Shown in pieces: positions 3,491 to 56,734 of a stretch of DNA of 64,000 nucleotides; position 1 is the first letter of the stretch; each line of letters begins with the position of its first letter. Location: assembly GCA_041740355.1 (NCBI GenBank), contig JBGSMD010000063.1, forward strand, positions 53,002 through 117,001, written 5' to 3'. Below the pieces are notes generated by a model. It was given only the letters and a program-made list of their open reading frames with translations, had not been told where the DNA came from and did not search any database. A program made the position numbers and the translations under genes. Origin of the DNA: Bdellovibrionota bacterium. GTDB lineage: Bacteria; Bdellovibrionota_C; UBA2361; CALJRW01.

Positions 3491-4462
3491 TTAATCTCTG
3501 GAAACAGAAATTACATTTCGTGGTAAATACTTAGATGTCCAAGAACGTGTGATCGGACTTCCGGCTGGACCTTCCGTCACTTCTAAAGTTATTTCAATAG
3601 CTCTTATTTCCTGCCATTGTTGACTAGACGTAAATGACGAGAAGATTGTTCCATCTTGCATCTCAACTCGAACCTGAAAATCGGTGATATTATTAGCAAT
3701 ATTCATAAAGAAACTAGGGTCATTGGAATCCACTAACTGTAAGATGTTAGTTGTAGTATCGAGCTGAATTCTCCATTCTTCCAATAGGTAAACAGAAGCA
3801 TTAGCAGCTGAAAAATTATGTTGCCAGTTTCCACTACTGGCAGTCTTGAAAATACGGTATTGGTTGACCCCGGCAGATACTGACAAATTTTCTACGCTTT
3901 CAAAAGTTAAATATTCGCCAACAAGACTAGATGCGTCGAAAATATAGGCTTTTGCTTCTCCACTATCTTCGCCGGCTAAGTATGCCCCCCAAACATTAAA
4001 GTTATTGGCATTGACACTATGACCACAAGCCCCTGGCAATGGGGTCAGATTAGTGCTGACGTAAGAAAAGAATAAATTTCGGTCGGCACTAGTAGCTGTT
4101 AAATTTTGACATAATAATAAAACTTCTTCTAATAAATTTCTTCTTAAAGTTAAAACGTCTGGTGCTCCGCTAGCACCATTTTGTAATAGGAGTGCTGGGA
4201 AAACTGCTGGTAAATTTGCACCTAACAAACGTACCTCCGACGAAATCACGTCGAAAACTCCGCGTAATTCCTGATTGGCCCGAACATTCACTACGTCTTT
4301 GGCGTAAAGCTTTTTGAATGAAATAATTGAAGACAAAACTATCGAGCTGACCACTACTAAGATCGAGGTTGAAACTAAAATCTCGACTAAAGTCATCCCT
4401 TTAATTGAGTTTCGTGAGCACGCTTTCCACTTCATAAACTTCTTTACTATCATAAGTGACAA
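3491..4462 (-). CDS. Pseudopilin / minor pilin-like protein with prepilin-type N-terminal domain
   Basis: The N terminus ...SIKG|MTLVEILVSTSILVV matches the prepilin cleavage/methylation motif (G, then a hydrophobic helix with E at +5). It is the last gene of a three-gene minus-strand operon. The start is ambiguous (Met at 4462, 4453 or 4435). Confidence 0.6.
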   Translation of the reverse strand: MSLMIVKKFMKWKACSRNSIKGMTLVEILVSTSILVVVSSIVLSSIISFKKLYAKDVVNVRANQELRGVFDVISSEVRLLGANLPAVFPALLLQNGASGAPDVLTLRRNLLEEVLLLCQNLTATSADRNLFFSYVSTNLTPLPGACGHSVNANNFNVWGAYLAGEDSGEAKAYIFDASSLVGEYLTFESVENLSVSAGVNQYRIFKTASSGNWQHNFSAANASVYLLEEWRIQLDTTTNILQLVDSNDPSFFMNIANNITDFQVRVEMQDGTIFSSFTSSQQWQEIRAIEITLEVTEGPAGSPITRSWTSKYLPRNVISVSRD

Positions 4463-4826
4463 CTACTTTTAAATGTCTTGTTTCGCTAGTTGCTGTTGGA
4501 GGGCAATATGTCATATTACTACAATAAGTTACCACAACTTGATAAGTCCTAGCACCAAAAGTGATATTGATCGGTGCGTTAGAGGTAACAGTTGAAGGCA
4601 TAGTTGTTGTATTCTCCAATCTCATTTGGTCAAAAACTTGTTGTGCCGCAATCTGAGCTTCTGATTTAATTTCACCCAGTCTTAACATACTATTTGCTTG
4701 CATTACAGAAGTACTAAAAGTTGCCGAAACAATTCCAATAATTATTAAAGCAACCAATACTTCAATTAAGCTAAATCCTGAAGCACTGTTAAAATTTCTC
4801 CCTAAAAACTTTTGTTTTAAATTCAT
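4401..4826 (-). CDS. Pseudopilin / minor pilin-like protein
   Basis: The N terminus ...NSASG|FSLIEVLVALIIIGIV is a canonical prepilin-type N-terminal cleavage/methylation domain. Confidence 0.65.
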   Translation of the reverse strand: MNLKQKFLGRNFNSASGFSLIEVLVALIIIGIVSATFSTSVMQANSMLRLGEIKSEAQIAAQQVFDQMRLENTTTMPSTVTSNAPINITFGARTYQVVVTYCSNMTYCPPTATSETRHLKVVVTYDSKEVYEVESVLTKLN

Positions 4827-4859
4827 AACAATTAATTAATTACGTTTAGGGCTGCTTCG

Positions 4860-5315
4860 TTATGAGGCAGAAATTCCTCCACCTAGAAAGATTTCAATCT
4901 TCTTAGTAAGTCCAGTCGTATCAGTAATATAAAATTCTTCATTATTTGGAAAACCACGAGAGTCAATACAAACTGACCAAGTGGTCGTGGTAAAAGTTGC
5001 CCCCACTGGTAAATCAAAGGTTAAACGTTGATCGTCGACCCAAGCATCTGCGGAATCACATGATTTGCGATAACTAGCAACAACCTGCGAATTACCGTTG
5101 GGAATAAGTTGATAAGCTACTAAATTAGCAATTGATTTAGCCTTAGCTAATTTATAAACACTAAGGACTTGATCCGTTGCAGATTGAGTTGGGGATACTA
5201 AATCTTTTAAATTCAAAACAGCGATCAACGATAAAATTCCAACTAGAGACATTACTACAAGAAGCTCGGCTACAGAAAATGCTTTAACTTGTAAAAATCT
5301 ATCTAACATACTCAT
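4860..5315 (-). CDS. Pseudopilin-like protein (atypical leader, Ala at -1)
   Basis: The N terminus ...LQVKA|FSVAELLVVMSLVGIL has a pilin-like hydrophobic helix with E at +5. It is the first gene of the pseudopilin operon. Confidence 0.5.
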   Translation of the reverse strand: MSMLDRFLQVKAFSVAELLVVMSLVGILSLIAVLNLKDLVSPTQSATDQVLSVYKLAKAKSIANLVAYQLIPNGNSQVVASYRKSCDSADAWVDDQRLTFDLPVGATFTTTTWSVCIDSRGFPNNEEFYITDTTGLTKKIEIFLGGGISAS

Positions 5316-5530: not shown

Positions 5531-6601
5531 CTAACCTTTTCCAGCAAGCGTACCACAGGCAGCACTAATATCAGCACCTCCCGAGTATCTTCTAACCACA
5601 GGCTGTTTTAAGTAAATATTCAGAGAATCTCGAAATACATTCATTTCTTCCTCAGTTGGTCTCTGGTAACGATTTGTAGCATCCGTTACTTCAATTAAAT
5701 CCAATCTAACTTGGGTGTCACCAATTAACTCCCCCAAAGCTTTTGCATCCTCCTCGTAAATGTTTTCACCACTAATGCAGACATATGCGAGCATAATTCT
5801 TTCCTTACGCTTCAGGGAATAACGTCTAGCCGCCGCAATAATTTCTTTAATTGGTGTTCTTGCCGCAACTGGTACTAAGCGCTGGCGCTTTTCATCCGTT
5901 GATGCACCGATACTAATTGACAGTCGAAATGGTCGCTCTTCGTCTATAAAGCGATTAATCTTATCTAACACTCCAACAGTACTTATTGTGATCGCCTTGG
6001 AACTAATTGCATTTAGTACTGGATAGCAAAGTAGTTCAGCCGAACGGAGAACATTTTCATAATTTAAAAATGGCTCACCCATTCCCATAAATACAGCTCC
6101 CGTGACAGTGCGTCCAGAAGCTTCGGCAATCTTTCGTGCTTGTTGCAGTTGATCTACTATTTCCCAACTTTTTAAGTTTCGTTGTTTTGGCATTCTTGCC
6201 GTTGCACAGAATGTACAAGCCATAACACAACCAACTTGCGAGGAAAGACAAACAGTAACGGAATTTTCTTTATGTAATGGAATAATTACTGTTTCCACGT
6301 TTAGGTCATCAGTAGTCTTAAAAAGTAGTTTTTGAAAACCATCAAGCTCAGAGGTAACTATCTTCACTAATTGCAATGATGGTAATTTTTCTAACTCAGA
6401 GGCTCGCTGATTACTTATGATTCCAACCTTCGCCCATTCTTGGGGATCTAAATGATACCTACCAAGCACCGCGCCCAATAAACGTGCCCCATTTTTTTGA
6501 TTAATACCAAATTTTTCTAAATTTTCTAAAAAAATCTTAGGTGCGTAGTCACGAGGATCTAATAAGTTAGGATTATTATTAATTTTTAAAGCAGAAGACA
6601 T
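5531..6601 (-). CDS. rlmN: Radical SAM 23S rRNA/tRNA adenine-C2 methyltransferase RlmN
   Basis: The CxxxCxxC cluster (CVMACTFCATA), GMGEPFLNYENV, ISTVG and the C-terminal ...DISAACGTLAG (catalytic Cys) are all present. Confidence 0.85.
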   Translation of the reverse strand: MSSALKINNNPNLLDPRDYAPKIFLENLEKFGINQKNGARLLGAVLGRYHLDPQEWAKVGIISNQRASELEKLPSLQLVKIVTSELDGFQKLLFKTTDDLNVETVIIPLHKENSVTVCLSSQVGCVMACTFCATARMPKQRNLKSWEIVDQLQQARKIAEASGRTVTGAVFMGMGEPFLNYENVLRSAELLCYPVLNAISSKAITISTVGVLDKINRFIDEERPFRLSISIGASTDEKRQRLVPVAARTPIKEIIAAARRYSLKRKERIMLAYVCISGENIYEEDAKALGELIGDTQVRLDLIEVTDATNRYQRPTEEEMNVFRDSLNIYLKQPVVRRYSGGADISAACGTLAGKG

Positions 6602-15672: not shown

Positions 15673-17355
15673 TTATAGGACTGGTACATCCCCAGCACTA
15701 GCAGGAGTTTCATTATCACCAATATTGTTTGTATTACCATAACCGATACTACCAAACTCACCGCTACCCCAACACCTAACACTACCGGTATCCAGTAATA
15801 CACATGTATGAATACCTCCGGCGGCTAGTTGAACCACGGTGCCACCGACATTTACATTTCCGACACTTGCTGGAGTTTCATTGTCACCAATATTATTAGT
15901 ATTGCCATAGCCAAGCTGACCATTTAAGCCTCGGCCCCAACACCTAACATTTCCCGTATCTAGTAATGCACAGGTTTTCTTAAAACCAGTAGCTATCTGA
16001 ACTACGGTGCCTCCGACATTTACATTTCCGACATTGGCTGGAGTTTCATTGTCACCAATATTATTAGTATTTCCATAACCAAGCTCCCCATCCGAACCTT
16101 CGCCCCAGCATCTTACATTTCCCGTATCTAGTAATGCACAGGTGTGATTCCCTGAAGCGGCCAATTGAACTACATTGCCACCAATATTCACAGCCTCATA
16201 GATAAGAGGTCCAATAATGTCATAAGTGCCCCCATGGCCAAGTTGGCCATAATAACCATCCCCCCAACACTTAACATTTCCTGAATTAACCAAGGCACAT
16301 GTATGATTACTTCCTGCTACTATTTGAGTTACAGTTTCATTTTCAAAATTGTAATCTTGAATAATAACAGACTCAAAGTTAGCAGGAGCTTCATCGTCTC
16401 CAACATTAGTAGTATTTCCGTTGCCCAGTTGGCCATTTCGTCCATAACCCCAACATTTAACTTGTCCAGTATTTAAAAGTGCACAGGTATGATTTGAGCC
16501 AGCAGAGATTTGAGTAACAGTCCCGCCAACATTAACATCTCCAGCATTGGCAGGTGTTTCAAAGTATCCAACAGAAGCAGTACTACCATATCCAAGTACA
16601 CCATAGTTACCACTCCCCCAACACCTAACTTTACCTGTGTCAAGTAGGGCACAGGTATGACCCCCTCCAGTAGCGATATCAACGACATTCCCGCCAACAA
16701 TTACATCCCCAACGCTTGCTGGTGTTTCATCATCTCCAATATTATAATGTACAGGAACAGTTGCATATCCAAGTTTACCAATAAACCCCTCACCCCAACA
16801 TCTAACTGCTCCAGTATCTAGTAGAACACAAGTATGACTAAATCCTGCCGATATTTTTTGAACATCTAAAGGTATATTACATAAGTTAGAACAAGCATCG
16901 TCATTAATATTATTTCCATCATCACACTGTTCTCCAGACTGCTTGACTCCATCTCCACAAATAGGCGTTGTGCATATATTAGTACAGGAGTCCTCATTGA
17001 TCGTATTCCCATCATCACACTGTTCAGCAATATCAACATCAACTACACCATTCCCACAGGTATGATTACAAGCAACCAGTCCTGAGACATGAAGCTTCTG
17101 CATTTTTTTTGATTGATTATTATATTTATTAATTCCGGTTGAGGCGAACAACTTCTTAAAATTAGAACTTAGCTTCTTATAGGTAATAAATTTCTTTTTT
17201 TGAATCTTCCCTGGCTTCCAAGAACCATTAACGTTTTTACAAACATAATTTATACCATCCTTTTCAACGTTTACCGTCTGGGCAAAAGCCGCCCCGGAGA
17301 ATAAAAATAGGCAGACTAGCAAAGATGAGAAGATAAATTGAAATGAGTTTTTCAT
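15673..17355 (-). CDS. Secreted RCC1-repeat (beta-propeller) protein with N-terminal Myxococcus-type cysteine-rich repeats
   Basis: A signal peptide is followed by CGNG..D..EQCDDGN...C..C repeats (x2-3). Then come about nine repeats of HTCALLDTG.V+CWG.G..GQLGYGNT..IGDNETPA (RCC1 signature). A start at 17355 (MKNSF...) is preferred over 17364. Confidence 0.8.
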   Translation of the reverse strand: MKNSFQFIFSSLLVCLFLFSGAAFAQTVNVEKDGINYVCKNVNGSWKPGKIQKKKFITYKKLSSNFKKLFASTGINKYNNQSKKMQKLHVSGLVACNHTCGNGVVDVDIAEQCDDGNTINEDSCTNICTTPICGDGVKQSGEQCDDGNNINDDACSNLCNIPLDVQKISAGFSHTCVLLDTGAVRCWGEGFIGKLGYATVPVHYNIGDDETPASVGDVIVGGNVVDIATGGGHTCALLDTGKVRCWGSGNYGVLGYGSTASVGYFETPANAGDVNVGGTVTQISAGSNHTCALLNTGQVKCWGYGRNGQLGNGNTTNVGDDEAPANFESVIIQDYNFENETVTQIVAGSNHTCALVNSGNVKCWGDGYYGQLGHGGTYDIIGPLIYEAVNIGGNVVQLAASGNHTCALLDTGNVRCWGEGSDGELGYGNTNNIGDNETPANVGNVNVGGTVVQIATGFKKTCALLDTGNVRCWGRGLNGQLGYGNTNNIGDNETPASVGNVNVGGTVVQLAAGGIHTCVLLDTGSVRCWGSGEFGSIGYGNTNNIGDNETPASAGDVPVL

Positions 17356-17408
17356 ATGGATCATTAAAAAAAGGATTAACTAACTTGTTAGGACTCGGAT
17401 CTTCTTGT

Positions 17409-17497
17409 TTAATCATTAAATAATACGGCGGCAGATAACTATCGACTCTTAAAGACTTAAACTTTAGAAATAATAATTAATGATTAGTTTGGATGAG
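17409..17497 (-). promoter_or_regulatory. Conserved upstream leader/promoter block of RCC1 paralog 1
   Basis: This ~89-nt block aligns by eye with 19442-19530, upstream of the paralog (TTAATC.TTAAATAATACGGC.G..AGATAACTATCG...TTAATGATTAG.TTGGATGA). Confidence 0.45.
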
Positions 17498-17730
17498 ACA
17501 ACTAAGATTTGAGATTCAAGGTAAATCTCGAAACTCTAAGTGACTTTATTCACGGTTAAAAGCTGTGTCCTGACTAAATCAGACTATTTAGTTCCTAAAA
17601 ATTGCAGTTCGAAAATGGTGCCTTATAAAATAAATTTTCAAGCTACAAAATTAATATGGGACTCAAGTATCATAAGAAGTCTAATAGATTCTAAAAACTA
17701 TTAGACTTCCAACTAATAATTTCTAGTTAC

Positions 17731-19401
17731 TTACAATACTGGCACATCGCCTGCACTAGCCGGCGTTTCGTCATCACCTATATCGTTGATATTACCATAT
17801 CCAAGATTACCCTCATCCCCATATCCCCAACATCTTACAGCACCAGTATCTAGAAGTGCACAAGTATGACTAACAATATAAGAAATTCTAGCATTTGAAG
17901 TAGTTATTTGAGTAACAGTGCCACCAACATTAATATCACCAACGCTAGCTGGAACCTCATTGTCTCCAATCGTTGTAAAATTTCCATAACCAAGTTGACC
18001 AGAACCTCCAAAACCCCAACACTTCACGGCACCAGTATCAAGTAGTGCGCAAGTGTGAGTTTTACCCGCAGATATTTGGGTTACCGTACCGCCAACATCA
18101 ACGTTATCAATACTTGCAGGTGTTTCATTGTCACCAACACTATATATATTACCGTAACCAAGTTGGCCCTCTTCGGCATATCCCCAACATTTTACTGCTC
18201 CAGTAGCTAAAAGCGCACAAGTATGATTATTGCCAGCAGATATTTGAGTTACTGTACCACCAACATTTATATCACCAACATTAGCTGGAGCCTCATTATC
18301 TCCAATAGTTTCAACATTTCCATAACCAAGTTGACCAGAACCTCCAAACCCCCAACACCTAACGGCACCATTATCAAGTAGTGCGCAAGTGTGACCACTG
18401 CCCACAGATATTTGAGTTACAGTACCGCCAACATCAACGTTACCAATACTAGCAGGTGTTTCATTGTCACCAATACTATTTGTATTACCGTAACCAAGTC
18501 GGCCATTTCCTCCATCGCCCCAACATTTTACAGCTCCAGTATCTAAAAGGGCGCAAGTATGCTTTCTACCAGCCGATATTTGAGTTACCGTACCGCCAAC
18601 ATCAACGTTACCAATACTAGCAGGTGTTTCATTGTCACCAATACTATTTGTATTACCGTAACCAAGTCGGCCATTTCCTCCATCGCCCCAACATCTTACT
18701 GCTCCAGTATCTAAGAGTGCGCATGTATGTTCTTCTCCCGCTGATACTTGAGTTATAGTACCACCTACATTCACATCTCCAACACTAGTTGGAGTTTCGT
18801 TATCTCCAATATTGATTACATTAGCATATCCAAGTTGACCAGAACCTCCATAGCCCCAACATTTAACATTACCAGTCTCCACAAGGGCACAGGTATGCGC
18901 ACCACCAGCGACTATTTCCAAGACTTTGTATAGACAAGTATTCGGACAAGTATCATCATCGTTACTATTCCCATCATCGCATTGTTCATCAGACTGGACA
19001 ATTCCATCACCACATTCTGGAAAATTACAAGAATTAGTACATAAGTCTGTGCTAACTAAATTCCCATCATCACACTGCTCACCCATGGATACGTCTAATA
19101 TTGTGTTTCCACAGGTATGACTACACGCAACTAACCCAGCTATATGCAGGTTCTTCATTTTTAGTGATTGCTTATTATATTTTTTTAAGGCAGTAGCTAC
19201 ATATAATTTCTTTAGATCTGATTGTAGTTTCTTGAAAGTTATAAATTTCTTTTTCTGGATTTTACCAGGTTTCCATGAGCCTTTAATTTGACTGCAAACA
19301 AACGTTTGTCCATCTTTAGTAACGGTAACTGTCTGTGCAAAAACTGAAGATGATAAACAAAAGAATACACAAGCGGATAATAATGAAAGCCTAATTTTCA
19401 T
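17731..19401 (-). CDS. Secreted RCC1-repeat protein with cysteine-rich repeats (paralog of 15673-17355)
   Basis: It has the same architecture and the same repeat consensus. The N-terminal 100 aa are co-linear with the paralog (…GSWKPGKIQKKKFIT.KKL…). Confidence 0.8.
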   Translation of the reverse strand: MKIRLSLLSACVFFCLSSSVFAQTVTVTKDGQTFVCSQIKGSWKPGKIQKKKFITFKKLQSDLKKLYVATALKKYNKQSLKMKNLHIAGLVACSHTCGNTILDVSMGEQCDDGNLVSTDLCTNSCNFPECGDGIVQSDEQCDDGNSNDDDTCPNTCLYKVLEIVAGGAHTCALVETGNVKCWGYGGSGQLGYANVINIGDNETPTSVGDVNVGGTITQVSAGEEHTCALLDTGAVRCWGDGGNGRLGYGNTNSIGDNETPASIGNVDVGGTVTQISAGRKHTCALLDTGAVKCWGDGGNGRLGYGNTNSIGDNETPASIGNVDVGGTVTQISVGSGHTCALLDNGAVRCWGFGGSGQLGYGNVETIGDNEAPANVGDINVGGTVTQISAGNNHTCALLATGAVKCWGYAEEGQLGYGNIYSVGDNETPASIDNVDVGGTVTQISAGKTHTCALLDTGAVKCWGFGGSGQLGYGNFTTIGDNEVPASVGDINVGGTVTQITTSNARISYIVSHTCALLDTGAVRCWGYGDEGNLGYGNINDIGDDETPASAGDVPVL

Positions 19402-27308: not shown

Positions 27309-28568
27309 ATGAAGAATAACTTATCAATTTGGTTCATTCGCCTCAGGTGGTTTGCCTTCATAGCGCAGATTATTATCCTTGCTTCAACGGTTTTATTTTT
27401 TAAGGTTGAAGTTAACTGGCAAAAGATTGCCCTAATCTTATCCGCACTTCCCCTTTCCAATATCATCACAACCCAATTTCTAGTTAAAAAATTTTCGGCC
27501 CAAGCAATTACTATTTGTTTAATTTTTTTAGATACTATTATTTTATCGGCAATTCTTTATTTGTCTGGCGGACCTGCTAATCCTTTTACGATTGTATTTC
27601 TACTGCACCTAGTTCTAACTGCAGTCTTACTCGATGAGCGTTGGACTTGGGTTATGGCACTCACAACCTGTGCCGCTTATGTCTTTTTATTTTTCTTCTC
27701 TCCAGAGACTGGAAGCGATCATCAACATCATCATGGATCTTCAAACTCTTTTTCCTTACATTTATATGGAATGCTATTTGCTTTTATTACCGTAGCAGTT
27801 CTTGTTGCTTATTTTCTAAATAAGATTATTACCGAACTTCGGTTAAAAGAATTGCGACTTCAAAAACTGGAACAGTTAGCTGTAAATAGCCAACGTTTAG
27901 CATCATTAGTAACTATAACAGCAGGAACCGCTCACGAACTAGGAACTCCATTAAGTACTATTGCCGTAGTCTGTAAGGAGTTAGAACTAGAGCTCAAAAA
28001 TCTAAATCCCTCGCCAGAAATTTTAGAAGATCTGCATTTAATTCAGCAAGAAGTGGGTCGTTGCAAAGATTACCTGTCAAATTTATCAGAGAAAACTGGC
28101 GATCTTACGGGAGAAACTCATCAAAGTATTTCGGCAAGAGATTTAATAAGTCAGATTATTGCTCCACTTTATAACAAAAACCATCGATTTGAAATTGAAG
28201 GTTCAGCAGATCATATTTTAAATTTAATCCCTGTGAAATCCCTAACAATTGCTATTAGAGCTCTAGTTAAAAATTCTCTAGATGCTTCAAGTGGGAGTAT
28301 TAAGAATGTTACCATTCGCCATCAAATAATTAATAATTATAATCAAATCGAAATCATAGACTTTGGCTTGGGGATGGATCCGGAAACATTAGAAATGATT
28401 GGGGAACCATTTTTCTCTCAAAAAGATAGCAAAGATGGTTTGGGTTTAGGAGTTTATTTATCAAAACTTGTTGCCAACCAAATTGGTGGAGAGCTAACTT
28501 TCACTTCTACAATATCCCAAGGCACTTGTGCTAAATTTCGATTTCCAGTAATTCCCTGTAAAGCATGA
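27309..28568 (+). CDS. Sensor histidine kinase, RegB/PrrB-like (polytopic N-terminal domain)
   Basis: About six TM helices are followed by the H-box TAGTAHELGTPLS and N/G boxes (…DFGLGM…, GLGLGVYLS). It overlaps the response regulator gene by 4 nt. Confidence 0.8.
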   Translation: MKNNLSIWFIRLRWFAFIAQIIILASTVLFFKVEVNWQKIALILSALPLSNIITTQFLVKKFSAQAITICLIFLDTIILSAILYLSGGPANPFTIVFLLHLVLTAVLLDERWTWVMALTTCAAYVFLFFFSPETGSDHQHHHGSSNSFSLHLYGMLFAFITVAVLVAYFLNKIITELRLKELRLQKLEQLAVNSQRLASLVTITAGTAHELGTPLSTIAVVCKELELELKNLNPSPEILEDLHLIQQEVGRCKDYLSNLSEKTGDLTGETHQSISARDLISQIIAPLYNKNHRFEIEGSADHILNLIPVKSLTIAIRALVKNSLDASSGSIKNVTIRHQIINNYNQIEIIDFGLGMDPETLEMIGEPFFSQKDSKDGLGLGVYLSKLVANQIGGELTFTSTISQGTCAKFRFPVIPCKA

Positions 28569-29104
28569 CCGCCAAGAACCTACGAAATACAATCTTAACT
28601 ATTGATGATGATGGAATTTTTCGTGATCGATTAACCAAAGCTTTTGCTAAAAGAGGGTTAATCGCTGAGCAGGCAGAAAATAGTACGGAAGCATTAAAGA
28701 AAATTAAAGAATTAAATCCAGACTTAATTGTTCTCGATCTGAAGCTTGGTAATGAATCAGGGTTAGATTTAATTACTGAAATCCTAGTTCTCTGCCCCAA
28801 AACTAAAATTGTGATGCTTACTGGATATGGCACAATCGGCACGACGGTTGAGGCAATGAAAAAAGGTGTGGTAAATTATTTAACAAAACCAGTTGATGCT
28901 GATACAATCTTAGCTGCTTTTCTAGGAGAGATAAAAGTTAATTCTACAACAGGAATTCCCCCACTCCACCAAATAGAATGGGACTATATTCAAAAAATCA
29001 TTGAGCAGTGCGAAGGTAATATTACGAAAGCATCTAAGTTATTGGGATTACACAGGCGCTCATTGCAAAGAAAAATGAAAAAAAGTCCTGGCTCCCTAAA
29101 ATAA
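28565..29104 (+). CDS. Response regulator, RegA/ActR/PrrA-like (receiver plus Fis-type HTH)
   Basis: The receiver domain has IDDD...LDLKL...TGYG...KP. The C-terminal HTH NITKASKLLGLHRRSLQRKMKK is typical of this family. Confidence 0.85.
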   Translation: MTAKNLRNTILTIDDDGIFRDRLTKAFAKRGLIAEQAENSTEALKKIKELNPDLIVLDLKLGNESGLDLITEILVLCPKTKIVMLTGYGTIGTTVEAMKKGVVNYLTKPVDADTILAAFLGEIKVNSTTGIPPLHQIEWDYIQKIIEQCEGNITKASKLLGLHRRSLQRKMKKSPGSLK

Positions 29105-42165: not shown

Positions 42166-42194
42166 TTGTTAGCACTCTGGTTTAGGTGTATATT
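42166..42194 (+). promoter_or_regulatory. Candidate sigma-70-type promoter for the RT operon (TTGTTA-N17-TATATT)
   Basis: The hexamers were read directly from the sequence with a 17-nt spacer, about 80 nt upstream of the RT ATG. In AT-rich DNA such matches are common by chance. Confidence 0.25.
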
Positions 42195-42272
42195 TATATT
42201 TGGTTGGTTTGTGCAACCTATCGATTAGAACATATTAAAAAAGACAAACGGACCCAATCAGCAATCTTAGTA

Positions 42273-43604
42273 ATGAACCTACTGCAAAAACTCTCCTCCC
42301 GTGAAAACTTTTTAGCAATCCTTGATATTTTAAAAAGTAAAAAAAAATCAAAATCTTGGATTCTACAATCTGCCCCGATTGAAAAATCAATATCGCTTGC
42401 TTGGTGTATTTATAACCAAGACTTACTTATCAAGTATTATTTAAAAAACTTAAGAAATCATTCCTATCGCCCACAAGTAAGAATTAAAATGACTATTTTT
42501 ATAGATAAACAAAGGATTATCTATAATATTAACTGGGTTGATAAAATTATGGACTATGCCCTGACTAAACTACTTTTTGATGTCAGTGCGGAATTTTTCT
42601 CCGATCAATTATTTTCCTATCGCCAAGGATTTTCTAATAAAAAAGCAGTAAAAAGCCTCTGTAAATATATCAAGAATAATCAAGGCTCAGAGATCTACAT
42701 TGCCAAACGAGATATTAAATCATACTTCGATAATATTAATAGCGGGATTTTAACCTCACAAATTAAGGAGAAATGTGGCGAGCAAGATTCCTTTTTTTGG
42801 AAACTTTTAAGTAGTTTCTTACAACCAGAATATTATGATCCGGAGCTAGATCTTCAGGAGCAACTACTTCTAGGAATACCAACTGGATCTTGCATCTCTA
42901 ACTTTGCTGCGAATTTTTATTTGCACGACCTTGATCATTTAGCTGTAAACAATTTAGACTTTTATGTTCGCTATGGAGACGATATAATTTTTGCTGATCG
43001 GGATAAGGATAAGCTAAATCAGCTTCTTAATACTTATCAAGAAAAAATTTTGGAACGCGATCTTAAATTCCACCCAGACAAAGATCTATTCCTGAAAATC
43101 GGACCAACTTTAGCAAGCTCCAAAGATTCGCCCTATCAAAGCAAAAAAGTATTTGATTACCTAGGTTACCAAATTAGCGACGAAGGACTTATCTTCCTAA
43201 AGTCTTATAAATTTAAAAAACTAAAAAAGGATATTAAGAGTAGACTATTCAACTCCTATCGCACATATTACCGTGCTGGACTAAGTAAGGATCTGCAAAT
43301 GTCTAATCTGATTAAAGACCTAAATGGTACGATGCGAGATTTAAATTACTATAATCATTTCGCCGATCTTGTCCTATTCACGACTGATAAACCACGACTT
43401 AAGGAATTTGATATTTGGATTGCTCAAACAATTATTGCCATGACTCATAACTGTTCTCGCGCTAATGCGTTTGGGAAAATTTCCTACAGACAAATACGCG
43501 AGGCAGGTCTATTCTCGATTCTAAATTACAAGAATATTTATCCTAGAAGAAATGAAGTTCTCCGATCTACAAAAAATCTCCAAAGCAGATCAGCAACGAC
43601 GTAA
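42273..43604 (+). CDS. Reverse transcriptase (RNA-directed DNA polymerase), orphan/unclassified
   Basis: RT motifs in order: YRPQ...I....R.IY (1), D+I..YAL..LL (2), RQGFS...AV, KRDIKSYFDNI (3), LGIPTGSCISNFAANFYLHDLD (4), YVRYGDDIIF (5; YGDD at 42972-42983), FHPDKDLF (6), FDYLGYQI (7). A ~150-aa C-terminal extension follows. The ATG at 42273 is preferred over the GTG at 42186. Confidence 0.85.
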   Translation: MNLLQKLSSRENFLAILDILKSKKKSKSWILQSAPIEKSISLAWCIYNQDLLIKYYLKNLRNHSYRPQVRIKMTIFIDKQRIIYNINWVDKIMDYALTKLLFDVSAEFFSDQLFSYRQGFSNKKAVKSLCKYIKNNQGSEIYIAKRDIKSYFDNINSGILTSQIKEKCGEQDSFFWKLLSSFLQPEYYDPELDLQEQLLLGIPTGSCISNFAANFYLHDLDHLAVNNLDFYVRYGDDIIFADRDKDKLNQLLNTYQEKILERDLKFHPDKDLFLKIGPTLASSKDSPYQSKKVFDYLGYQISDEGLIFLKSYKFKKLKKDIKSRLFNSYRTYYRAGLSKDLQMSNLIKDLNGTMRDLNYYNHFADLVLFTTDKPRLKEFDIWIAQTIIAMTHNCSRANAFGKISYRQIREAGLFSILNYKNIYPRRNEVLRSTKNLQSRSATT

Positions 43605-45786
43605 TCTTGTCCGTAAAGGACTAGAGCAGTATGATCTCAGATCCTACTTACGCTACTTAAGGTATCGAATTAAATGGCCAATACTTTTTAAGTTACTTTC
43701 TCGACTAATTGTTATTGTTGAAGTGATTCTAATTCAACAACTATTTACTTATAATATTTTTGCAGACTTAACTCTCTATATTTTCATTATTTTTATCAGT
43801 CGAAGCGCCCTAAAAGGTATTACTCAATACTATCGTGTGCAACTAATGCCCCTAGCGACGGCAAAAAACATTTCTGGCCTAAATATCGCCCTAAGTAAGG
43901 CTCTGATCATAAACATCTTTTCTGCCTTTTTATTAGCCTTGGTCATTAGCATTCTTTGTCTACTCTTAGATTTATCGGATCAGTTAAACACTTACTTTAT
44001 AATTTCCTGGTGCTTATTAATCCCGCTAGAGCAAATTACCACGCAGCTTTGGAATACCGTCTATCTTAATACCCGACTAAGGCGAAGTGCCTTGATTACT
44101 TTCATTTGCCGCATGCTTCCAATCATTTCACTATTAGCTTTTAGCAGCTTGATTGGCCCCCTAAGTTACATTCTGGGTACATTTATGGCGAGATTATTAG
44201 AAAGTTTTTACTTATCGCGTGTCGCAATTTTAGCATTAAAGTTCAAATTTACATTAAAGAAGAAATCGAGCAGTTTGTTACAAGTTATCGGACAGTATTT
44301 TAAAAATCAAAAGGCGCGCCAATACCTTTACTTTAATGCCATCCTACCCTGTTATTTTTTGGGTCTTGGATTAATCATCTTTGAACGGGGAGTCGGTACC
44401 TGGATTACAAATATTATTTATTTTTTTATTTTAAATTTTGCAGTTTTTTTTACTACACAAATTTCACGCTCAATTCAATTTGACATCTACTCCTGCTTTA
44501 AAAAAGGGCAGGTAAAAAAAGCAACGTTCTTAGGCAAAAGAATTGTAAAATATACTTTGAACTTTGCTGTAATTCTAGCAGCTAGCTTTATCTATTTACT
44601 CTTAAATTCCAAAAGGTTTTACCTTTTCATACCAATTAGCTTAGAATATTTTCTATTAATCTTACCCTTGGCAGTAATTGCTCAAACGTTTTTTTTTTCG
44701 ATCTATGCCCAAATCCAATCCCTAGCAATCGATCGTTATTTCACCAAGCTAATCTTCATTAGCTTCCTCCTAATAGGCTTACCAATTCAGTTCCTTCTAT
44801 TTCATTATTACCTCGCAAATCTACAAGCGATCTACTGGACTGAAATCCTTCTCTTTGTGTTTGTAGGTACACTATTATATTTAAATTTGAACTTTAATCT
44901 CAGTCCCTTTTTAATAAAGTATATCAAAAGAGAGCGGAAGGCTCTGCCCCTGTGCCAACCAACTGCACTCCAATTAGAGCTCCGAACTAAATATATCAAA
45001 ACTGGCTCAGCTTATCTTTACATATTATCTTATTATGAGCGGGATGCTTTCTGGGAACGCATTAAGTATTCACTTCCCCAAACAAAAGATTTCTTAATTA
45101 CCCGGTACTCTGCTGGGCTCTTCCTGCTTTCATCTCATCAACCACTGACGGATCTTGATTTTCGCAACCTAAGCTTTGTTGCCAAAAAGCAAATAGATTT
45201 AAGCCAAGAGCTACTGCAGACTTTACTGGATATTTATACTTTTTACTATTCTCTAGAATTTAGAAATAGCTCATTCCAAAAAATACGTAATAAGTTCTAT
45301 CTTAATAGATCCATCAAAGAAGAATTGTATCAGTTAGCGGAATTAAAGAGGCCAGTAGATCAAATAATATCAGAGTTGCTTGGAGCTCCTAGGATCGTCT
45401 TCAAAAATGGTAAAATTTCTTGTTTGGGCAAAGTCAGTAATAAACTTTATAATTTTGCTTTGAACCAATATTTTTATCCTGACAATAACTTGGCTCCCGC
45501 AATTCAAGGATCCCAATTAACAATCAGAATTAATAATACGGAAACAATTAGTTTCGACTTAAGGCACTTGAATAGTTACCTAATTGGACAAGTTAATAAA
45601 AAGATTTTTTTCCTCAATCAATATTATTATTTTAAGAATATTATTGATCCCCATTTGCCATATGCAGCTAGCATTCAAGATTATTTAATAGCACGGAGAC
45701 TGATTCATAAACATACCCGTCGCTGTAAAACGAGAAAGGCTGACCATTTAGCAGATCTCAATTTTTATAATCATAAATTAGTATGA
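43552..45786 (+). CDS. Polytopic (~12 TM) membrane protein with ~290-aa soluble C-terminal domain; RT-operon gene 2
   Basis: About 12 hydrophobic helices were counted by eye between aa ~40 and ~450 (MOP/MATE-flippase-like spacing). No motif was recognised in the C-terminal domain. It overlaps the RT gene by 53 nt and the PLD gene by 4 nt. Confidence 0.65.
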   Translation: MKFSDLQKISKADQQRRNLVRKGLEQYDLRSYLRYLRYRIKWPILFKLLSRLIVIVEVILIQQLFTYNIFADLTLYIFIIFISRSALKGITQYYRVQLMPLATAKNISGLNIALSKALIINIFSAFLLALVISILCLLLDLSDQLNTYFIISWCLLIPLEQITTQLWNTVYLNTRLRRSALITFICRMLPIISLLAFSSLIGPLSYILGTFMARLLESFYLSRVAILALKFKFTLKKKSSSLLQVIGQYFKNQKARQYLYFNAILPCYFLGLGLIIFERGVGTWITNIIYFFILNFAVFFTTQISRSIQFDIYSCFKKGQVKKATFLGKRIVKYTLNFAVILAASFIYLLLNSKRFYLFIPISLEYFLLILPLAVIAQTFFFSIYAQIQSLAIDRYFTKLIFISFLLIGLPIQFLLFHYYLANLQAIYWTEILLFVFVGTLLYLNLNFNLSPFLIKYIKRERKALPLCQPTALQLELRTKYIKTGSAYLYILSYYERDAFWERIKYSLPQTKDFLITRYSAGLFLLSSHQPLTDLDFRNLSFVAKKQIDLSQELLQTLLDIYTFYYSLEFRNSSFQKIRNKFYLNRSIKEELYQLAELKRPVDQIISELLGAPRIVFKNGKISCLGKVSNKLYNFALNQYFYPDNNLAPAIQGSQLTIRINNTETISFDLRHLNSYLIGQVNKKIFFLNQYYYFKNIIDPHLPYAASIQDYLIARRLIHKHTRRCKTRKADHLADLNFYNHKLV

Positions 45787-47513
45787 AATCCAAAAGTTTA
45801 ATCTACTTTATTTTCATTTTACTAAGCTTAATTATTGGACTATCGCTCCACGCTGAGAGAATCGAAATACCTCTTTACGTTCTACGAAAAGCAATTACTT
45901 GTTCTAGTGTTCAAGAGAAAACATTGGAAGTTGTTTTCCAAAACAAGTCTTATTTGATCGCATTTGACCATATTTACAGTACTCCCGTTATTAATGCAGG
46001 TTTAGTCTGTCAACGTTTGATCCGCTACTTAAAAGCAGCGCCTTCGCCCAATTTAATCATCCCTATCTCCAAAAAATATACCAAGTTCGGCCATGATATT
46101 TATGTCGATGAATCAGGATTTTTAGAAAAAGCTTGCCTAGAACAAGGGCTTTGTAAGCGAAACATCTTGGATACTTTTAAGCCCAAAAAAATACTCCGTG
46201 AATGTCATGGGAAAATTACACTAAACGGCTTATTGGCAAAATCTCGTCCCAAAATTCCTGGCTATCAAACAAAAATCATTAAAGATGTTACAATTAAAAT
46301 TCACCCATTTCATCCATTTATCAATATTCTAAATGAATACCTTCAAGATCCAATTTTAAAGGAAATTCATGCCTCTACTATGTCAATTGGTAATCAAGCC
46401 CTAGACGATATTTCTGCCAGCACGCAAAGCTACAATAAAAAGGCTGTAATTAATTATGATGCCGGAATTTCATTGTTCAATTCTCAACAAGGCCAAATTG
46501 CTAAGGCTATTACTAAGTCACCTAAAGTTCATTTTTTACCAATGACCAGTGGTAATAATTTTAGCCAATTTTATCACATCAAATTTATTGCTAGCCCACA
46601 AACTAACAAGTCAATGTTGGCCTCAATGAATTTAGCCTCAGTAGATCGAACAGCATATCTCGACCTAAATTTTTTCTTTGAGGATCCTACTATTCGCGAT
46701 GAGTTTTTATCCATCTCAAATAATAATAATCGAAGATTTTGTGATTATTCTGAAGATTATGACTGCTTAGCAAATTTTTATGATGAAAGATCAAAATCCC
46801 ATATTCCACTGGTAATAAATAGAAGTTGTCCGACAAGCAATACCGAAACTACTATCAAAAGATCTGGTTACTTTGTAAACTCCGAAGATGATGATCTCAA
46901 ACAATTTGTGATAAACTTTATTAATCAAGCAAAACAAGAAATCATTGTAACTTCCTACAAGTTAACAGAAAGAGCCATTGCCAAGGCCTTATTAAACAAG
47001 CAGCAAGAAGGGCTTAAAGTTCACGCCATGTTAGCCTTTAAATCTCCCGCATTGGGCGAATTGAAAAGCCATTTCTACTCGGGGGAAGTTGTTAAGGAAG
47101 AGTATCCTTTTCCTCACATGAAAATTATTATTATCGATCGCCGACTAATGCTATTTGGAACTGCGAACTTCACGATTAATGCTTTAAATAATACAACTGA
47201 ATTAATTGGAGTTACTGATAATCAGCAAGCAATTAAAACAGCGTTAGATCATGTCGCAGTTTTTACACAGTCCAAAGATCTGGCCTTAAGTAAAAACATT
47301 TCCAATACTCCTAAGCAGAAAAATTATGTAGCAGTGACGAGCTCTACGCAGATCAAACCAGTGAATTTACCTTTTACTAAACCGCTTGAGCAGAAATGGT
47401 TATCAAACTACCGAGAGGTAACAAAGGAAGGCGAAAAATTATTAGATAAGTGTGATTTAAGGCACCTTATTTTTATAACTAAGGCAACTTATTTGGAATG
47501 TCTTAAAAAATAA
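45783..47513 (+). CDS. PLD-superfamily (HKD) enzyme with N-terminal signal peptide/anchor; RT-operon gene 3
   Basis: The canonical HKD motif HMKIIIIDRRLMLFGTANFT (HxKxxxxD-x6-GTxN) lies at 47115-47168. A degenerate first motif, HIKFIASP...ASMN, lies at 46575-46641. The N terminus MKSKSLIYFIFILLSLIIGLSLHA is signal-like. Confidence 0.8.
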   Translation: MKSKSLIYFIFILLSLIIGLSLHAERIEIPLYVLRKAITCSSVQEKTLEVVFQNKSYLIAFDHIYSTPVINAGLVCQRLIRYLKAAPSPNLIIPISKKYTKFGHDIYVDESGFLEKACLEQGLCKRNILDTFKPKKILRECHGKITLNGLLAKSRPKIPGYQTKIIKDVTIKIHPFHPFINILNEYLQDPILKEIHASTMSIGNQALDDISASTQSYNKKAVINYDAGISLFNSQQGQIAKAITKSPKVHFLPMTSGNNFSQFYHIKFIASPQTNKSMLASMNLASVDRTAYLDLNFFFEDPTIRDEFLSISNNNNRRFCDYSEDYDCLANFYDERSKSHIPLVINRSCPTSNTETTIKRSGYFVNSEDDDLKQFVINFINQAKQEIIVTSYKLTERAIAKALLNKQQEGLKVHAMLAFKSPALGELKSHFYSGEVVKEEYPFPHMKIIIIDRRLMLFGTANFTINALNNTTELIGVTDNQQAIKTALDHVAVFTQSKDLALSKNISNTPKQKNYVAVTSSTQIKPVNLPFTKPLEQKWLSNYREVTKEGEKLLDKCDLRHLIFITKATYLECLKK

Positions 47514-53320: not shown

Positions 53321-53803
53321 TTAAGTTATATTTTGGTAATCTAAAACCTTAAAAAGCTCCTTCATTTTTTGATATCGATAATCAAAAATGTTCTTAAGCT
53401 GATTCTTTACCAACAACTCTCTCGCTATTTGACCAAAGATGCCACAAGGCATTCCATAATGAACTAAATCTTCTACCACCAAGCCTTGATCTGTTTTTCT
53501 AAATGAATGTTGATGGTGCCAAAACTTATAAGGTCCAAAGCGCTGCTCATCTATAAAATACTCCCGATCTTTAACCTGGGTAATTTCCGTCACCCATTGC
53601 ATTGGGATTCCAAGTAAAGGATAGACTCGATACTCTATTATCTTGCCAGGATATATTCTTCCATCTTCTGCGCCAGATATAAATTTAAAGTTTAAAAACT
53701 CAGGTGTAATAATCTTCAGATTCATCGGATTACTAAAGAAGTCCCAAATAGTTTCCAGATCTTCATTTAGGATAAATCTTTCTTTGATCTGATAAATTTT
53801 CAT
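53321..53803 (-). CDS. SRPBCC-fold (START/Bet v1-like) ligand-binding protein
   Basis: At ~160 aa, with the pattern ...W.FFSNP.NL..ITP....F........G.II.Y.V.......W.TEIT...... F.DEQ..GPYK.W.H.H.F, it is typical of the COG4276-type SRPBCC family. Confidence 0.6.
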   Translation of the reverse strand: MKIYQIKERFILNEDLETIWDFFSNPMNLKIITPEFLNFKFISGAEDGRIYPGKIIEYRVYPLLGIPMQWVTEITQVKDREYFIDEQRFGPYKFWHHQHSFRKTDQGLVVEDLVHYGMPCGIFGQIARELLVKNQLKNIFDYRYQKMKELFKVLDYQNIT

Positions 53804-54002
53804 AAAATATTGCTTTGATTATAATACTAGCCACTTTACTGATGAATCTTTTCAAATAAAGATTACTTACTAAATTAAGTATCTATGACGTAAGAACTAG
53901 ATTAAATTGCACAACTTTTCTTAGATTAGGATATTCAAATTCAATCGCTGTCCAAGTAAATTTGCAAACTGCCAAAAAGTGTATCGCTGCGGATGAGTTT
54001 TA

Positions 54003-54144
54003 TAGTTATGACAAAAACTAATTTCCGAATATTTAAAAATTAGTTTTGTGATTTTTGTCATAACCGTATGATTTTATAACGCTTGCGGGGGATAGTAAGC
54101 CCCAGAAAGTAATTCCTATTGGAAATTCCTTTCTGGACTTACTA
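54003..54144. repeat. Family-2 composite repeat, full copy
   Basis: It has the same two-hairpin layout as 50763-50897, with small indels and compensating changes. Confidence 0.7.
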
Positions 54145-54407
54145 TAGTATATTTATTTTGCTCAGATTCTAAGTTTATTTTATAAGGTCTAGAGACTTAT
54201 GCGAACCCCTTGGGTCACATCAAGCACTTTATGCTTGAGATACGAGGCAACCAGATCTTATTAAGGAAAGTTTCAATGTCGCCTAGTATATTCTTGGATT
54301 TAGACTAAAGCTGGACTATTTGAGCTTAAAAATTAATGTTTGTTAAATATAATGTCGAACAATTATTAGCTTTCAAATTTAACTTAAACGACTTAATAAA
54401 TACAAAA

Positions 54408-54961
54408 ATGAAACTCCAAAACTCTAAAGCTCTAAAGCTCAACATAGATTTACCTTAGTTGAGCTTTTAGTAGTTACTGCAATTATTGGTATCCTAGCCT
54501 CAGTCAGTGTGGCCAACTATGATGAATATAAAGCTAAGGTAAATGATACTCGGGCTGAGTTAACTGGTAGAAATTTAATTACGGCGGGAGAAGTCCACTT
54601 GAATGATTTAAGAGATCTACAATCGACGAATTCCCTGACATCGTCAGTTGCCTATAGCCCAATGGAGGGTAATGAATATTTAACATCAGGAGGACATTCT
54701 CTAGACATCAGATCCCTAATCTCACCAGCCCTACTTCAAGGAAACGATCTATTCTTTAATATGATGGTCGAAATGCGCAGCGCATCTCATGCCGCTAGCA
54801 GTGCAGGATTAAGAGAAAGTATTCTAATTAATATTCTAGCTTGTGGAGGAAATAATCTTTTCCATATGAATCATACGAACTTATATAATCACAATACAAT
54901 TCACCTAGATAGCTCCCCAGGAAGTACAGTTCCGGCATTAAGATCTATGTTCTGCGGTTAG
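54408..54961 (+). pseudogene. Type IVa pilin (PilA-like) gene disrupted by a frameshift from an 8-bp tandem duplication
   Basis: The ATG at 54408 gives MKLQNSKALKLNIDLP*. In the other frame the sequence reads ...SKAQHR|FTLVELLVVTAIIGILASVSVANYDEYKAK..., continuing to a C-terminal Cys pair (ACGG...MFCG). Removing one copy of CTCTAAAG (54422-54429 / 54430-54437) restores a single ORF. Confidence 0.65.
54422..54437 (+). repeat. Perfect 8-bp tandem duplication CTCTAAAG x2 inside the pilin leader
   Basis: Read directly from the sequence. Confidence 0.9.
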
Positions 54962-55070
54962 TTTCTAAATAGCTTGTATTGTTAAGTTATTTTAAAGATC
55001 GATAATTTTACCTCTCTAACGACTTGTAAATAGGTATTAAATTTGCTAATTATCCCAGTCTACAAAGTTT

Positions 55071-55143
55071 GCCCAGATAGCTCAGTTGGTAGAGCAAAGG
55101 ACTGAAAATCCTTGTGTCGACGGTTCGATCCCGCCTCTGGGCA
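55071..55143 (+). tRNA. tRNA-Phe (anticodon GAA), no encoded CCA
   Basis: It is co-linear with canonical bacterial tRNA-Phe: acceptor GCCCAGA/TCTGGGC, D arm GCTC-AGTTGGTA-GAGC, anticodon loop CTGAAAA, and T arm GACGG-TTCGATC-CCGCC (one A-C mismatch). Confidence 0.9.
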
Positions 55144-55580
55144 CTTTTTCACAATTTTATTGTGAAAAAGTGCATAGCTATTTTCGTAGAAAATAGCTGG
55201 GCCATACATCTAAAGGATGTTGCATAATAATTTTGAGTCATAGATACAGTCTTTTTCTTAACCTAATTCTCAAAATTATTGGGCTACTTTCGCCTAGCGA
55301 AATAAAGTGCATAGTAATTTTCTGAAAGAAAATTACTGGGCAATTACCAGAATGGTGTTGCATAGCTATTTTCGAAGAAAATTACTGGGCAATTACCAGA
55401 ATGGTGTTGCATAGCTATTTTCGAAGAAAATAGCTGGGCATTATCCGAAGGATAATGTTTAGTAGTTCTTCCTAAAACTACTAAACCCGAGCACCGCGAG
55501 GGTTAATAATTCTGATCTCAGAATTATTAAGCAATCATCCGCAGGATGATGCTAAGTAGTTTAAGGAAAAGCTACTTGGC
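55141..55580. repeat. Array of ~15 back-to-back hairpins starting in the last 3 nt of tRNA-Phe
   Basis: Examples: GCACTTTTTCACAAT-ttt-ATTGTGAAAAAGTGC (15 bp), AGCTATTTTC-gta-GAAAATAGCT, AATAATTTTGAG...CTCAAAATTATT, AGTAATTTTC-tgaaa-GAAAATTACT, ATTATCC-gaa-GGATAAT, GTTTAGTAGTT...AACTACTAAAC, TTAATAATTCTGA-tc-TCAGAATTATTAA. Several are followed by (C)TGGGC(A), the same sequence as the tRNA-Phe 3' acceptor end. Confidence 0.7.
55331..55428. repeat. Perfect 49-bp tandem duplication (x2) within the hairpin array
   Basis: AATTACTGGGCAATTACCAGAATGGTGTTGCATAGCTATTTTCGAAGAA occurs at 55331-55379 and again at 55380-55428. Confidence 0.85.
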
Positions 55581-55723
55581 ACCGAGTTCTTTAAAATTCA
55601 AAAGAAAACACTGAACCCTAAGCAAACATAATCTAACCCCACTTGCTCAAAACCTACTAATAATAACGACTAGGTACTACCTCACCCCTTTTTCCTCCCC
55701 CACTCTTGCGCTATGCTACCCCC

Positions 55724-56734
55724 ATGTCCTCTAAAGAAATAATTGAAAAAATTAAAGTGCTGGCAACTCAACCAACACCCCCTCGACAAATCGCAATAAT
55801 TGCTAGCGATCGCATACTCCGAGAACGCACATTAAATAGCTTTGCGGAAGAACTAAAACTCCAAGCAGAGGGTAAATGGAAATATGATATTAAGCGAATT
55901 AAATTATCTCAAGCCAAAGACCAGGATTTAAAAACTTTTATCTTTGAATCTAATGCCCAATCTTTTTTTTCTAAGAAACAAATTTTCTTAATTGAAGAAC
56001 TAGAAAAAGTTAGCGGTCCACAAACAGATATTTTGCTAAGCTTATTTAAGCAAAGACAAACTGAAAATTATTACTTTTTTCTGGGCACCGGGTTACTCAG
56101 TACTAGTCGTTTAATGAAGCAATTTAAAGAGCAGAACTCTGTAATCACACTGCCCAATTTGAAACTGCCGGAATTTAAAAATTGGATCAAAGGAGAGTTT
56201 AATTCTAAAAATCTTTTGCCTGAGCCTAGAGTGATTGATCATCTAGCTCAAAGCTGTGAGCTTTTAACTGACATCGCCCTAGCTAAGATTGAGCAACTAG
56301 AATTATTTGCAGATACTCAGAAAATCACACTTAGTATGGCAGAAGATCTTTTTCCAAGTGAGCTAGCTTTAAAGAAGTTTGCTTGGTTAGATGCCATCTC
56401 CTCTGGCAACAAGCTATTAGCTCAAAAGCTTGTTAGTCAAGCACTGTCTGAAGGTAAAGAAGCACTAGGGCTGACTGCACTTATTCAAGGTAATTACTTA
56501 AATTATTATTTAATTATCTCCCTTCGAAATCAGGGTTACTCTCAACAACAAATTAAAGCTTCCTTGAAAATAGAACCCTGGCTTTTCGATTTACAATATT
56601 CCACAGCTTCCCAAAAAGACTTAAAAAGATTAATTAAAGACTTAAAAGTACTCGTACTCGCTGATAGTAAATTAAAAAATAAGTCTCTAGGTAGCGAAGC
56701 TGTTTTGCACGAACTAATTAATTCTTTATCTTAA
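55724..56734 (+). CDS. holA: DNA polymerase III subunit delta (HolA)-like
   Basis: It is ~336 aa. The N-terminal pattern is …SFFSKKQIFLIEELEK…. The C-terminal domain pattern LDAISSGNKLLAQKLVSQALSEGKEALGLTALIQ resembles HolA domain III. The ATG at 55724 is preferred over the TTG at 55706. Confidence 0.5.
   Translation: MSSKEIIEKIKVLATQPTPPRQIAIIASDRILRERTLNSFAEELKLQAEGKWKYDIKRIKLSQAKDQDLKTFIFESNAQSFFSKKQIFLIEELEKVSGPQTDILLSLFKQRQTENYYFFLGTGLLSTSRLMKQFKEQNSVITLPNLKLPEFKNWIKGEFNSKNLLPEPRVIDHLAQSCELLTDIALAKIEQLELFADTQKITLSMAEDLFPSELALKKFAWLDAISSGNKLLAQKLVSQALSEGKEALGLTALIQGNYLNYYLIISLRNQGYSQQQIKASLKIEPWLFDLQYSTASQKDLKRLIKDLKVLVLADSKLKNKSLGSEAVLHELINSLS

Follow-up and report, generated by a model that had tools for sequence, protein, structure and literature searches.

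An 8-nt tandem duplication in a frameshifted type IV pilin gene: probable recent decay rather than a phase switch

Is a pilin gene whose leader and body are separated by an 8-nt tandem duplication a switch that can be thrown back, or a gene that has been lost? The question was raised by a sequence-only reading of a 64-kb stretch of DNA (the window), which described a type IV pilin gene at 54408-54961 as turned off by the duplication and suggested reversible phase variation. The genome is AT-rich and probably belongs to the Bdellovibrionota. We examined the reading frames, the repeat, the residue at the processing site, and the available relatives of the protein, and weighed the histories that could have produced the locus.

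Reading frames and surroundings of the locus

On the forward strand, the leader frame (54408..54458) starts at the ATG at 54408 and encodes MKLQNSKALKLNIDLP in 16 sense codons before the stop TAG at 54456-58; after the ATG, the codons read AAA CTC CAA AAC TCT AAA GCT CTA AAG CTC AAC ATA GAT TTA CCT TAG. The mature pilin frame (54449..54961, forward strand) is the -1 (+2) frame relative to this ATG. It is open throughout its 170 codons, from Phe+1 at 54449-51 past Glu+5 at 54461-63 to the TAG at 54959-61, while 5' of Phe+1 it contains a TAA at 54425-27 and no ATG, GTG, or TTG. Direct reading therefore agrees with the earlier description of a 16-codon leader followed by a stop, with the body in another frame and lacking a start of its own. 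The leader as spelled out there was correct in its coordinates, its repeat unit, and its consequences, except for two surplus bases; the actual reading is AACTCTAAAGCTCTAAAGCTC. Where a Gly codon (GGA) is expected at position -1 of the body frame, we observed AGA (Arg; 54446..54448, forward strand), which could alternatively be the remnant of a GGA minus one G. The two C-terminal Cys that had been described are present at mature positions 132 (54842-44) and 169 (54953-55), and this segment (54842..54955, forward strand) may form a disulphide loop. The product that gene callers assign to the locus, P0001, is a 150-aa ORF with a GTG start (54509..54961, forward strand), which is truncated and without the transmembrane helix.

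The best sigma-70-like match in 53800-55300 is TTAAAA-16-TATAAT (54326..54353, forward strand), a putative promoter by consensus that agrees at 10/12 positions and lies ~ 55 nt 5' of the ATG. A bare pattern match to a sigma-54 -24/-12 element (TGG-N9-AGCA with GG/GC spacing, TGGGTCACATCAAGCA) was also seen at 54211-54226, ~ 190 nt 5' of the pilin ATG. The pilin leader has no Shine-Dalgarno motif, which is normal here: of 30 well-supported genes, only 3 have a Shine-Dalgarno core no more than 20 nt from the start. Given this count and the A/T-rich start contexts, the genome appears to be largely Shine-Dalgarno-independent in initiation. The locus is flanked by an SRPBCC gene on one side and on the other by tRNA-Phe(GAA) (55071..55144, forward strand), 110 nt 3' of the pilin stop; in an Rfam scan of 53800-55750, this tRNA alone reached threshold. 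Just 3' of the tRNA, 55167-55445 holds 5-6 copies of a ~ 35-nt palindromic unit, TGCATAGCTATTTTCGNAGAAAATAGCTGGGCA, including an exact 49-nt tandem pair at 55326-55423, and further hairpin-prone sequence extends to ~ 55590. No Rfam family matches the array, which may represent a REP-like element or what is left of an integration site.

The sequence-only reading had allowed that raw reads might reveal the duplication as an assembly or sequencing error. However, window positions 54098-55107 are reproduced base for base, with both CTCTAAAG units and the single G, by a Logan contig from run SRR28170465 (L002, 1010 bp). This contig comes from a separate assembly, whose reads are possibly shared with those of the window. 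An assembler artifact is unlikely given this identity, the non-homopolymeric site, and the intact state of the remaining large genes of the window. That the true gene is intact and has, for example, dropped a G from GGA or gained a spurious extra 8-mer is thus a reading to which we give very little probability, although the pilin body is fully open and the genome is apparently a metagenome-derived assembly without a second isolate.

Pilin identity and the residue at position -1

Two repairs join the leader to the body. Removal of one unit gives, as had been stated, MKLQNSKAQHR/FTLVELLVV (the slash separates leader from body), with an 11-aa leader and Arg at -1. The other repair, overlooked in the sequence-only reading, is a single event: one G inserted at 54447/48 (ATA GA TTT to ATA GGA TTT) yields MKLQNSKALKLNIG/FTL, in which both units are read in frame and the residue at -1 is the canonical Gly. 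Both repaired proteins exceed the cut-offs of PF07963 (N_methyl; 24.8-27.4 bits, cut-off 21.2) and TIGR02532 (21.6-25.5 bits, cut-off 16.3), in keeping with the type IV pilin identity first proposed. The best NCBIfam match is NF041775 (Myxococcus-type PilA), over the N-terminal third, at 36.4 bits for the one-unit protein and 40.2 bits for the G-insertion protein; the score is far under the 400-bit cut-off, so the pilin is not that equivalog.

Class III signal peptides have Phe (or Met/Leu) at +1, Glu at +5, and ~ 21 hydrophobic residues forming alpha1-N, preceded by a hydrophilic leader that ends in Gly (rarely Ala) at -1 and is cut by prepilin peptidase. The pilin body has this canonical N-terminus, with Phe+1, Glu+5, and the hydrophobic alpha1-N helix FTLVELLVVTAIIGILASVSVA. 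As sequenced, the gene has no in-frame leader and AGA at -1, and a leader of this kind appears only after the hypothetical G insertion. Judged from its sequence, the assignment as a type IV (class III signal peptide) pilin holds through the N-terminal helix only. A single-sequence AF2 model (pLDDT 40.7) likewise predicts a long N-terminal helix over residues 1-30 (pLDDT 64-82), with values below 50 over residues 34-170. With type IVa major pilins (PilA-type), the gene shares Phe+1, Glu+5, the hydrophobic helix, and a short basic leader, and the mature protein is alike in its ~ 170 aa and two C-terminal Cys; it differs from them in lacking an in-frame start and in having Arg for Gly at -1 in the body frame.

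Relatives of the protein were sought in several collections. In a word-index search of 5.8 billion proteins, the sole near-identical protein was the truncated P0001, in a singleton cluster. A HMMER scan of 1.84 billion representative proteins returned 255 matches, of which the best 149 besides P0001 align from residue 1 through the helix region only; among the matches listed, the globular part had no detectable relative. JGI metagenomes contained no relative by peptide patterns or by a leader DNA 22-mer, and a GTDB genome scan with the neighboring rsmE returned only an unrelated Lichenibacterium locus. The comparison of orthologs that had been proposed as a check therefore yielded, in the protein, HMMER, JGI, and GTDB searches, no ortholog preserving the ancestral leader, and an intact allele was absent from the 5.8-billion-protein collection and the JGI metagenomes.

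Because the mature part alone served as the query, the leaders of the retrieved relatives are an unbiased sample. Of the best 149 of 255 matches, 141 have Gly at position -1 and the other 8 have Ala, with no Arg; the restored leader, as remarked earlier, would end in Arg. A review of type IV pili describes the bacterial leader as mostly hydrophilic or neutral and as invariably ending in Gly, a residue that mutagenesis in several systems found to be absolutely critical for processing (Berry & Pelicic, PMC4471445). We also considered whether AGA might be reassigned to Gly in this genome. The residues opposite AGA in ParE homologs are Arg (70%), His, and Lys, and Gly is commonly encoded by GGA, so the reassignment was rejected.

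The two repaired leaders were compared with the same sample, in which leader length ranges over 3-39 aa with a median of 9, and both 11 and 14 aa occur (among the matches listed). A position-specific profile of residues -2 to -7, built from the matches listed, gives the one-unit leader (..NSKAQH) +0.56 bits, with the modal Gln at -3 (41/144) and a His at -2 that is found in 4/145. The two-unit leader (..ALKLNI) scores -4.2 bits, with Ile at -2 in 0/145 and any of I/L/V/F/M at -2 in only 2.8% of the leaders listed. Hydrophobic content is 10% in the one-unit leader, which is typical, and 31% in the two-unit leader, a level that only 12% of the leaders listed reach.

The repeat and the histories that could explain it

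The exact tandem pair CTCTAAAG CTCTAAAG occupies 54422..54437 on the forward strand (units 54422-54429 and 54430-54437); together with the CTC that comes next at 54438-40, it makes 19 nt of exact period 8, or 2.4 exact units. It is listed as the sole exact tandem repeat with a period of at least 7 in the 64-kb window, where a first-order Markov model expects 0.035 exact period-8 repeats. The pair sits in a longer period-8 tract of four imperfect units, AAACTCCA AAACTCTA AAGCTCTA AAGCTCAA (54411..54442, forward strand; 21/24 period-8 matches), reported by TRF as 3.8 copies with 90% matches at 54411-54440. No other short periodicity in the 64 kb is as strong as this tract, and 0 of 200 Markov simulations equaled it at any period of 5-12. 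The 8-bp tandem duplication described from sequence is consequently real and beyond chance by both measures. As 8 is not a multiple of 3, the number of copies sets the frame: the body is in frame with one unit and out of frame with two. With one unit removed, the tract keeps 13/16 period-8 matches, a level found at two places in the window against 0.39 expected, which is a weak hint of earlier slippage.

From the observed frameshift, non-random repeat, Arg codon, and family statistics, we infer the following mutational history and, with it, a loss of function. With moderate confidence, we favor a recently inactivated major-type pilin gene, now a pseudogene with two lesions, the 8-bp duplication and a GGA to AGA change at -1. 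The ancestral gene would most likely have had a single CTCTAAAG unit and a GGA codon at -1, encoding MKLQNSKAQHG/FTLVELLVV.... Two CTC trinucleotides 8 nt apart provide microhomology at the junction, and slipped-strand mispairing between them could have duplicated CTCTAAAG and so shifted the leader frame by +2. Ribosomes starting at the ATG at 54408 then meet the TAG at 54456 after 16 codons, leaving the pilin body untranslated. The second lesion (Gly-1Arg), for which AGA is one transition away from GGA, would remove the residue that the prepilin peptidase needs, and either lesion may be the earlier one. At 37% GC, chance alone would very rarely keep 170 codons of the body open, which points to a recent inactivation. 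The frame is disrupted relative to all homologs and has no alternative start, which is what marks a pseudogene. The sequence-only reading had taken the Arg codon as a possible sign either of decay or of an unusual processing site; decay is the part that we favor.

Several observations count against the two-lesion history. It needs two mutations within 30 nt where the deletion of a single G needs one, and the residual 13/16 similarity hints that the two-unit state might be older. A native two-unit leader, MKLQNSKALKLNIG/FTLVELLVV, might instead have lost one G of GGA at 54447/48 (ATA GGA TTT to ATA GA TTT), a possibility that we consider unlikely but well ahead of the remaining ones. The repeat would then be an old and harmless feature of the leader, and the gene would still be a pseudogene and not a switch. 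A single event would restore the canonical Gly, and the repaired protein scores better with TIGR02532 (25.5 vs 21.6 bits), PF07963 (27.4 vs 24.8), and NF041775 (40.2 vs 36.4), although this gap of 2.6-3.9 bits is due to Gly alone. A 14-aa leader is common in the family (13/145, among the matches listed), and a weak period-8 signal remains even without the last unit. On the other hand, the resulting leader is unusually hydrophobic and has the unmatched Ile at -2, and a functional leader would already have had to carry 19 nt of perfect period 8, something that chance would very rarely produce. Nor does leader similarity support it: P0005 (SKALKL) and P0064 (ALNLNSG) had seemed to match the two-unit leader, but neither candidate leader scored better than its shuffled controls, 609/1000 and 679/1000 of which reach the top score. 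In our weighing, the leader of the one-unit repair fits better and the exact repeat becomes a recent event, at the cost of a further change, GGA to AGA.

Phase variation can be set beside known switches. In Streptococcus pneumoniae, cap3A varies in phase through a reversible short tandem duplication, while the poly-G tract of Neisseria pilC is a simple-sequence contingency locus in a pilus gene, and contingency tracts of this type have many units and high slippage rates. The window repeat resembles the pilC tract in lying in the 5' coding region with a copy number that sets the reading frame, but it has two exact 8-nt units. The phcA gene of Ralstonia solanacearum is a further reversible tandem duplication switch, as cited in 10.1101/2023.04.27.538605. 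As in phcA and cap3A, the duplication lies inside the ORF and shifts its frame, and exact loss of one copy would restore it; unlike in those genes, the restored product lacks the essential Gly-1, and no revertant allele was seen in the databases searched.

For these reasons, we consider it very unlikely that this is a true phase-variable locus at which an 8-nt unit is lost and gained by slippage, with one unit as the ON state, two as the OFF state, and a prepilin with Arg at -1 that is processed unusually. Its attractions are a unit length that is not a multiple of 3, a tract that stands out in the window and may have slipped before, an intact promoter-like site and body ORF, and the precedents just given. 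Yet AGA is read as Arg here and Arg is absent at -1 in the relatives, so reversion would not yield a cleavable prepilin; loss of a unit restores the frame without giving a processable product, which means that the locus does not work as a phase switch. The tract has only two exact units (four imperfect ones) where a hypermutable tract has many, the addition of a third would introduce TAA into the leader frame, both assemblies carry a single allele, and no intact allele was found in the 5.8-billion-protein collection or JGI metagenomes. The reversible ON/OFF mechanism put forward in the sequence-only reading is accordingly unsupported. A contingency switch whose ON form matures non-canonically, or acts as an uncleaved, membrane-anchored pilin-like protein, has a slimmer chance still; if a switch were real, the residual period-8 structure of the leader would record repeated cycles of slippage.

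Programmed -1 ribosomal frameshifting, which would fuse the leader to the body, is the least probable of all and we give it next to no weight. The body is indeed in the -1 frame, and A AAG at 54434-37 offers a place where a Lys-tRNA could slip. However, the sequence contains no X XXY YYZ heptamer, and no structure was recognized downstream. Slipping anywhere before AGA leaves Arg in the -1 position, and slipping at GAT TTA would produce Asp(-1)/Leu(+1). With no slippery heptamer and no slip product with Gly at -1, the mechanism was rejected.

Other pilin genes and the meaning of the locus

The ParE protein of the window has 62-64% identity to proteins named as from Oligoflexia or Bdellovibrionota MAGs and 96% amino acid identity to ParE of MAG GCA_031385045.1, the nearest related MAG, which at the DNA level has only about 75-80% identity to the window. 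This MAG encodes an intact 180-aa prepilin (L005:16388-16930, …NCYKKG/FTLVELLVTT…), located between a PilS-like kinase and a PilR-like regulator (L005:15781-18252). It shares 38% identity over 104 aa with the window pilin, in an alignment that goes past the helix, and so the pilin family is real and is intact in a relative. The two proteins are similar in length and each has two C-terminal Cys; the MAG prepilin differs in being intact, with Gly at -1 (KKG/FTLVELL), and in having a leader unrelated to that of the window gene.

The window has its own PilS-like histidine kinase (27309-28568) and a Response_reg+HTH_8 regulator (PilR-like; 28565-29104), both orthologous to those of the MAG, and the two genes overlap by 4 nt. 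Unlike in GCA_031385045.1, no pilin lies between them at the kinase-regulator junction (27309-29104). With kinase and regulator overlapping and no pilin between, the major pilin is missing from the regulatory locus, and the sole homolog seen is the broken copy beside tRNA-Phe. Three consecutive prepilin-type genes (GMTLVEIL, GFSLIEVL) are found at 3491-5315 on the reverse strand, with TIGR02532 scores of 17-27 bits. By sequence similarity, they are a predicted minor-pilin or pseudopilin cluster, the best named match being PilV/GspH/ComG-type minor pilins, and they adjoin a radical SAM gene at 5531-6601. Apart from these minor-pilin-like genes, no other major pilin was found in the 64-kb window. 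As to whether another intact pilA exists, which had been suggested as a check, the window is without one, and the intact homologous pilin in the related MAG is at a different locus.

Two further loci of the window were recorded. An operon at 42186-47513 (forward strand) encodes a reverse transcriptase whose best PADLOC match is RT_UG26/DRT (1e-32), a 744-aa protein without a family match, and a PLD-family nuclease that is DrmC-like (6e-13); its gene order is kept in GCA_031385045.1, and it is a candidate defense-associated RT system. At 15673-19401 (reverse strand), two paralogous ~ 560-aa proteins combine DUF4215 with RCC1-repeat beta-propeller domains.

We conclude that the pilin locus is most probably a case of ordinary gene decay. 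It is best annotated as a frameshifted prepilin pseudogene instead of a 150-aa hypothetical protein. More generally, the fact that deleting a repeat unit restores a frame is no proof of phase variation unless the restored product is viable. If the organism is predatory or moves by twitching, knowing whether its major pilin is intact would, together with the rest of the genome, help to predict its lifestyle.
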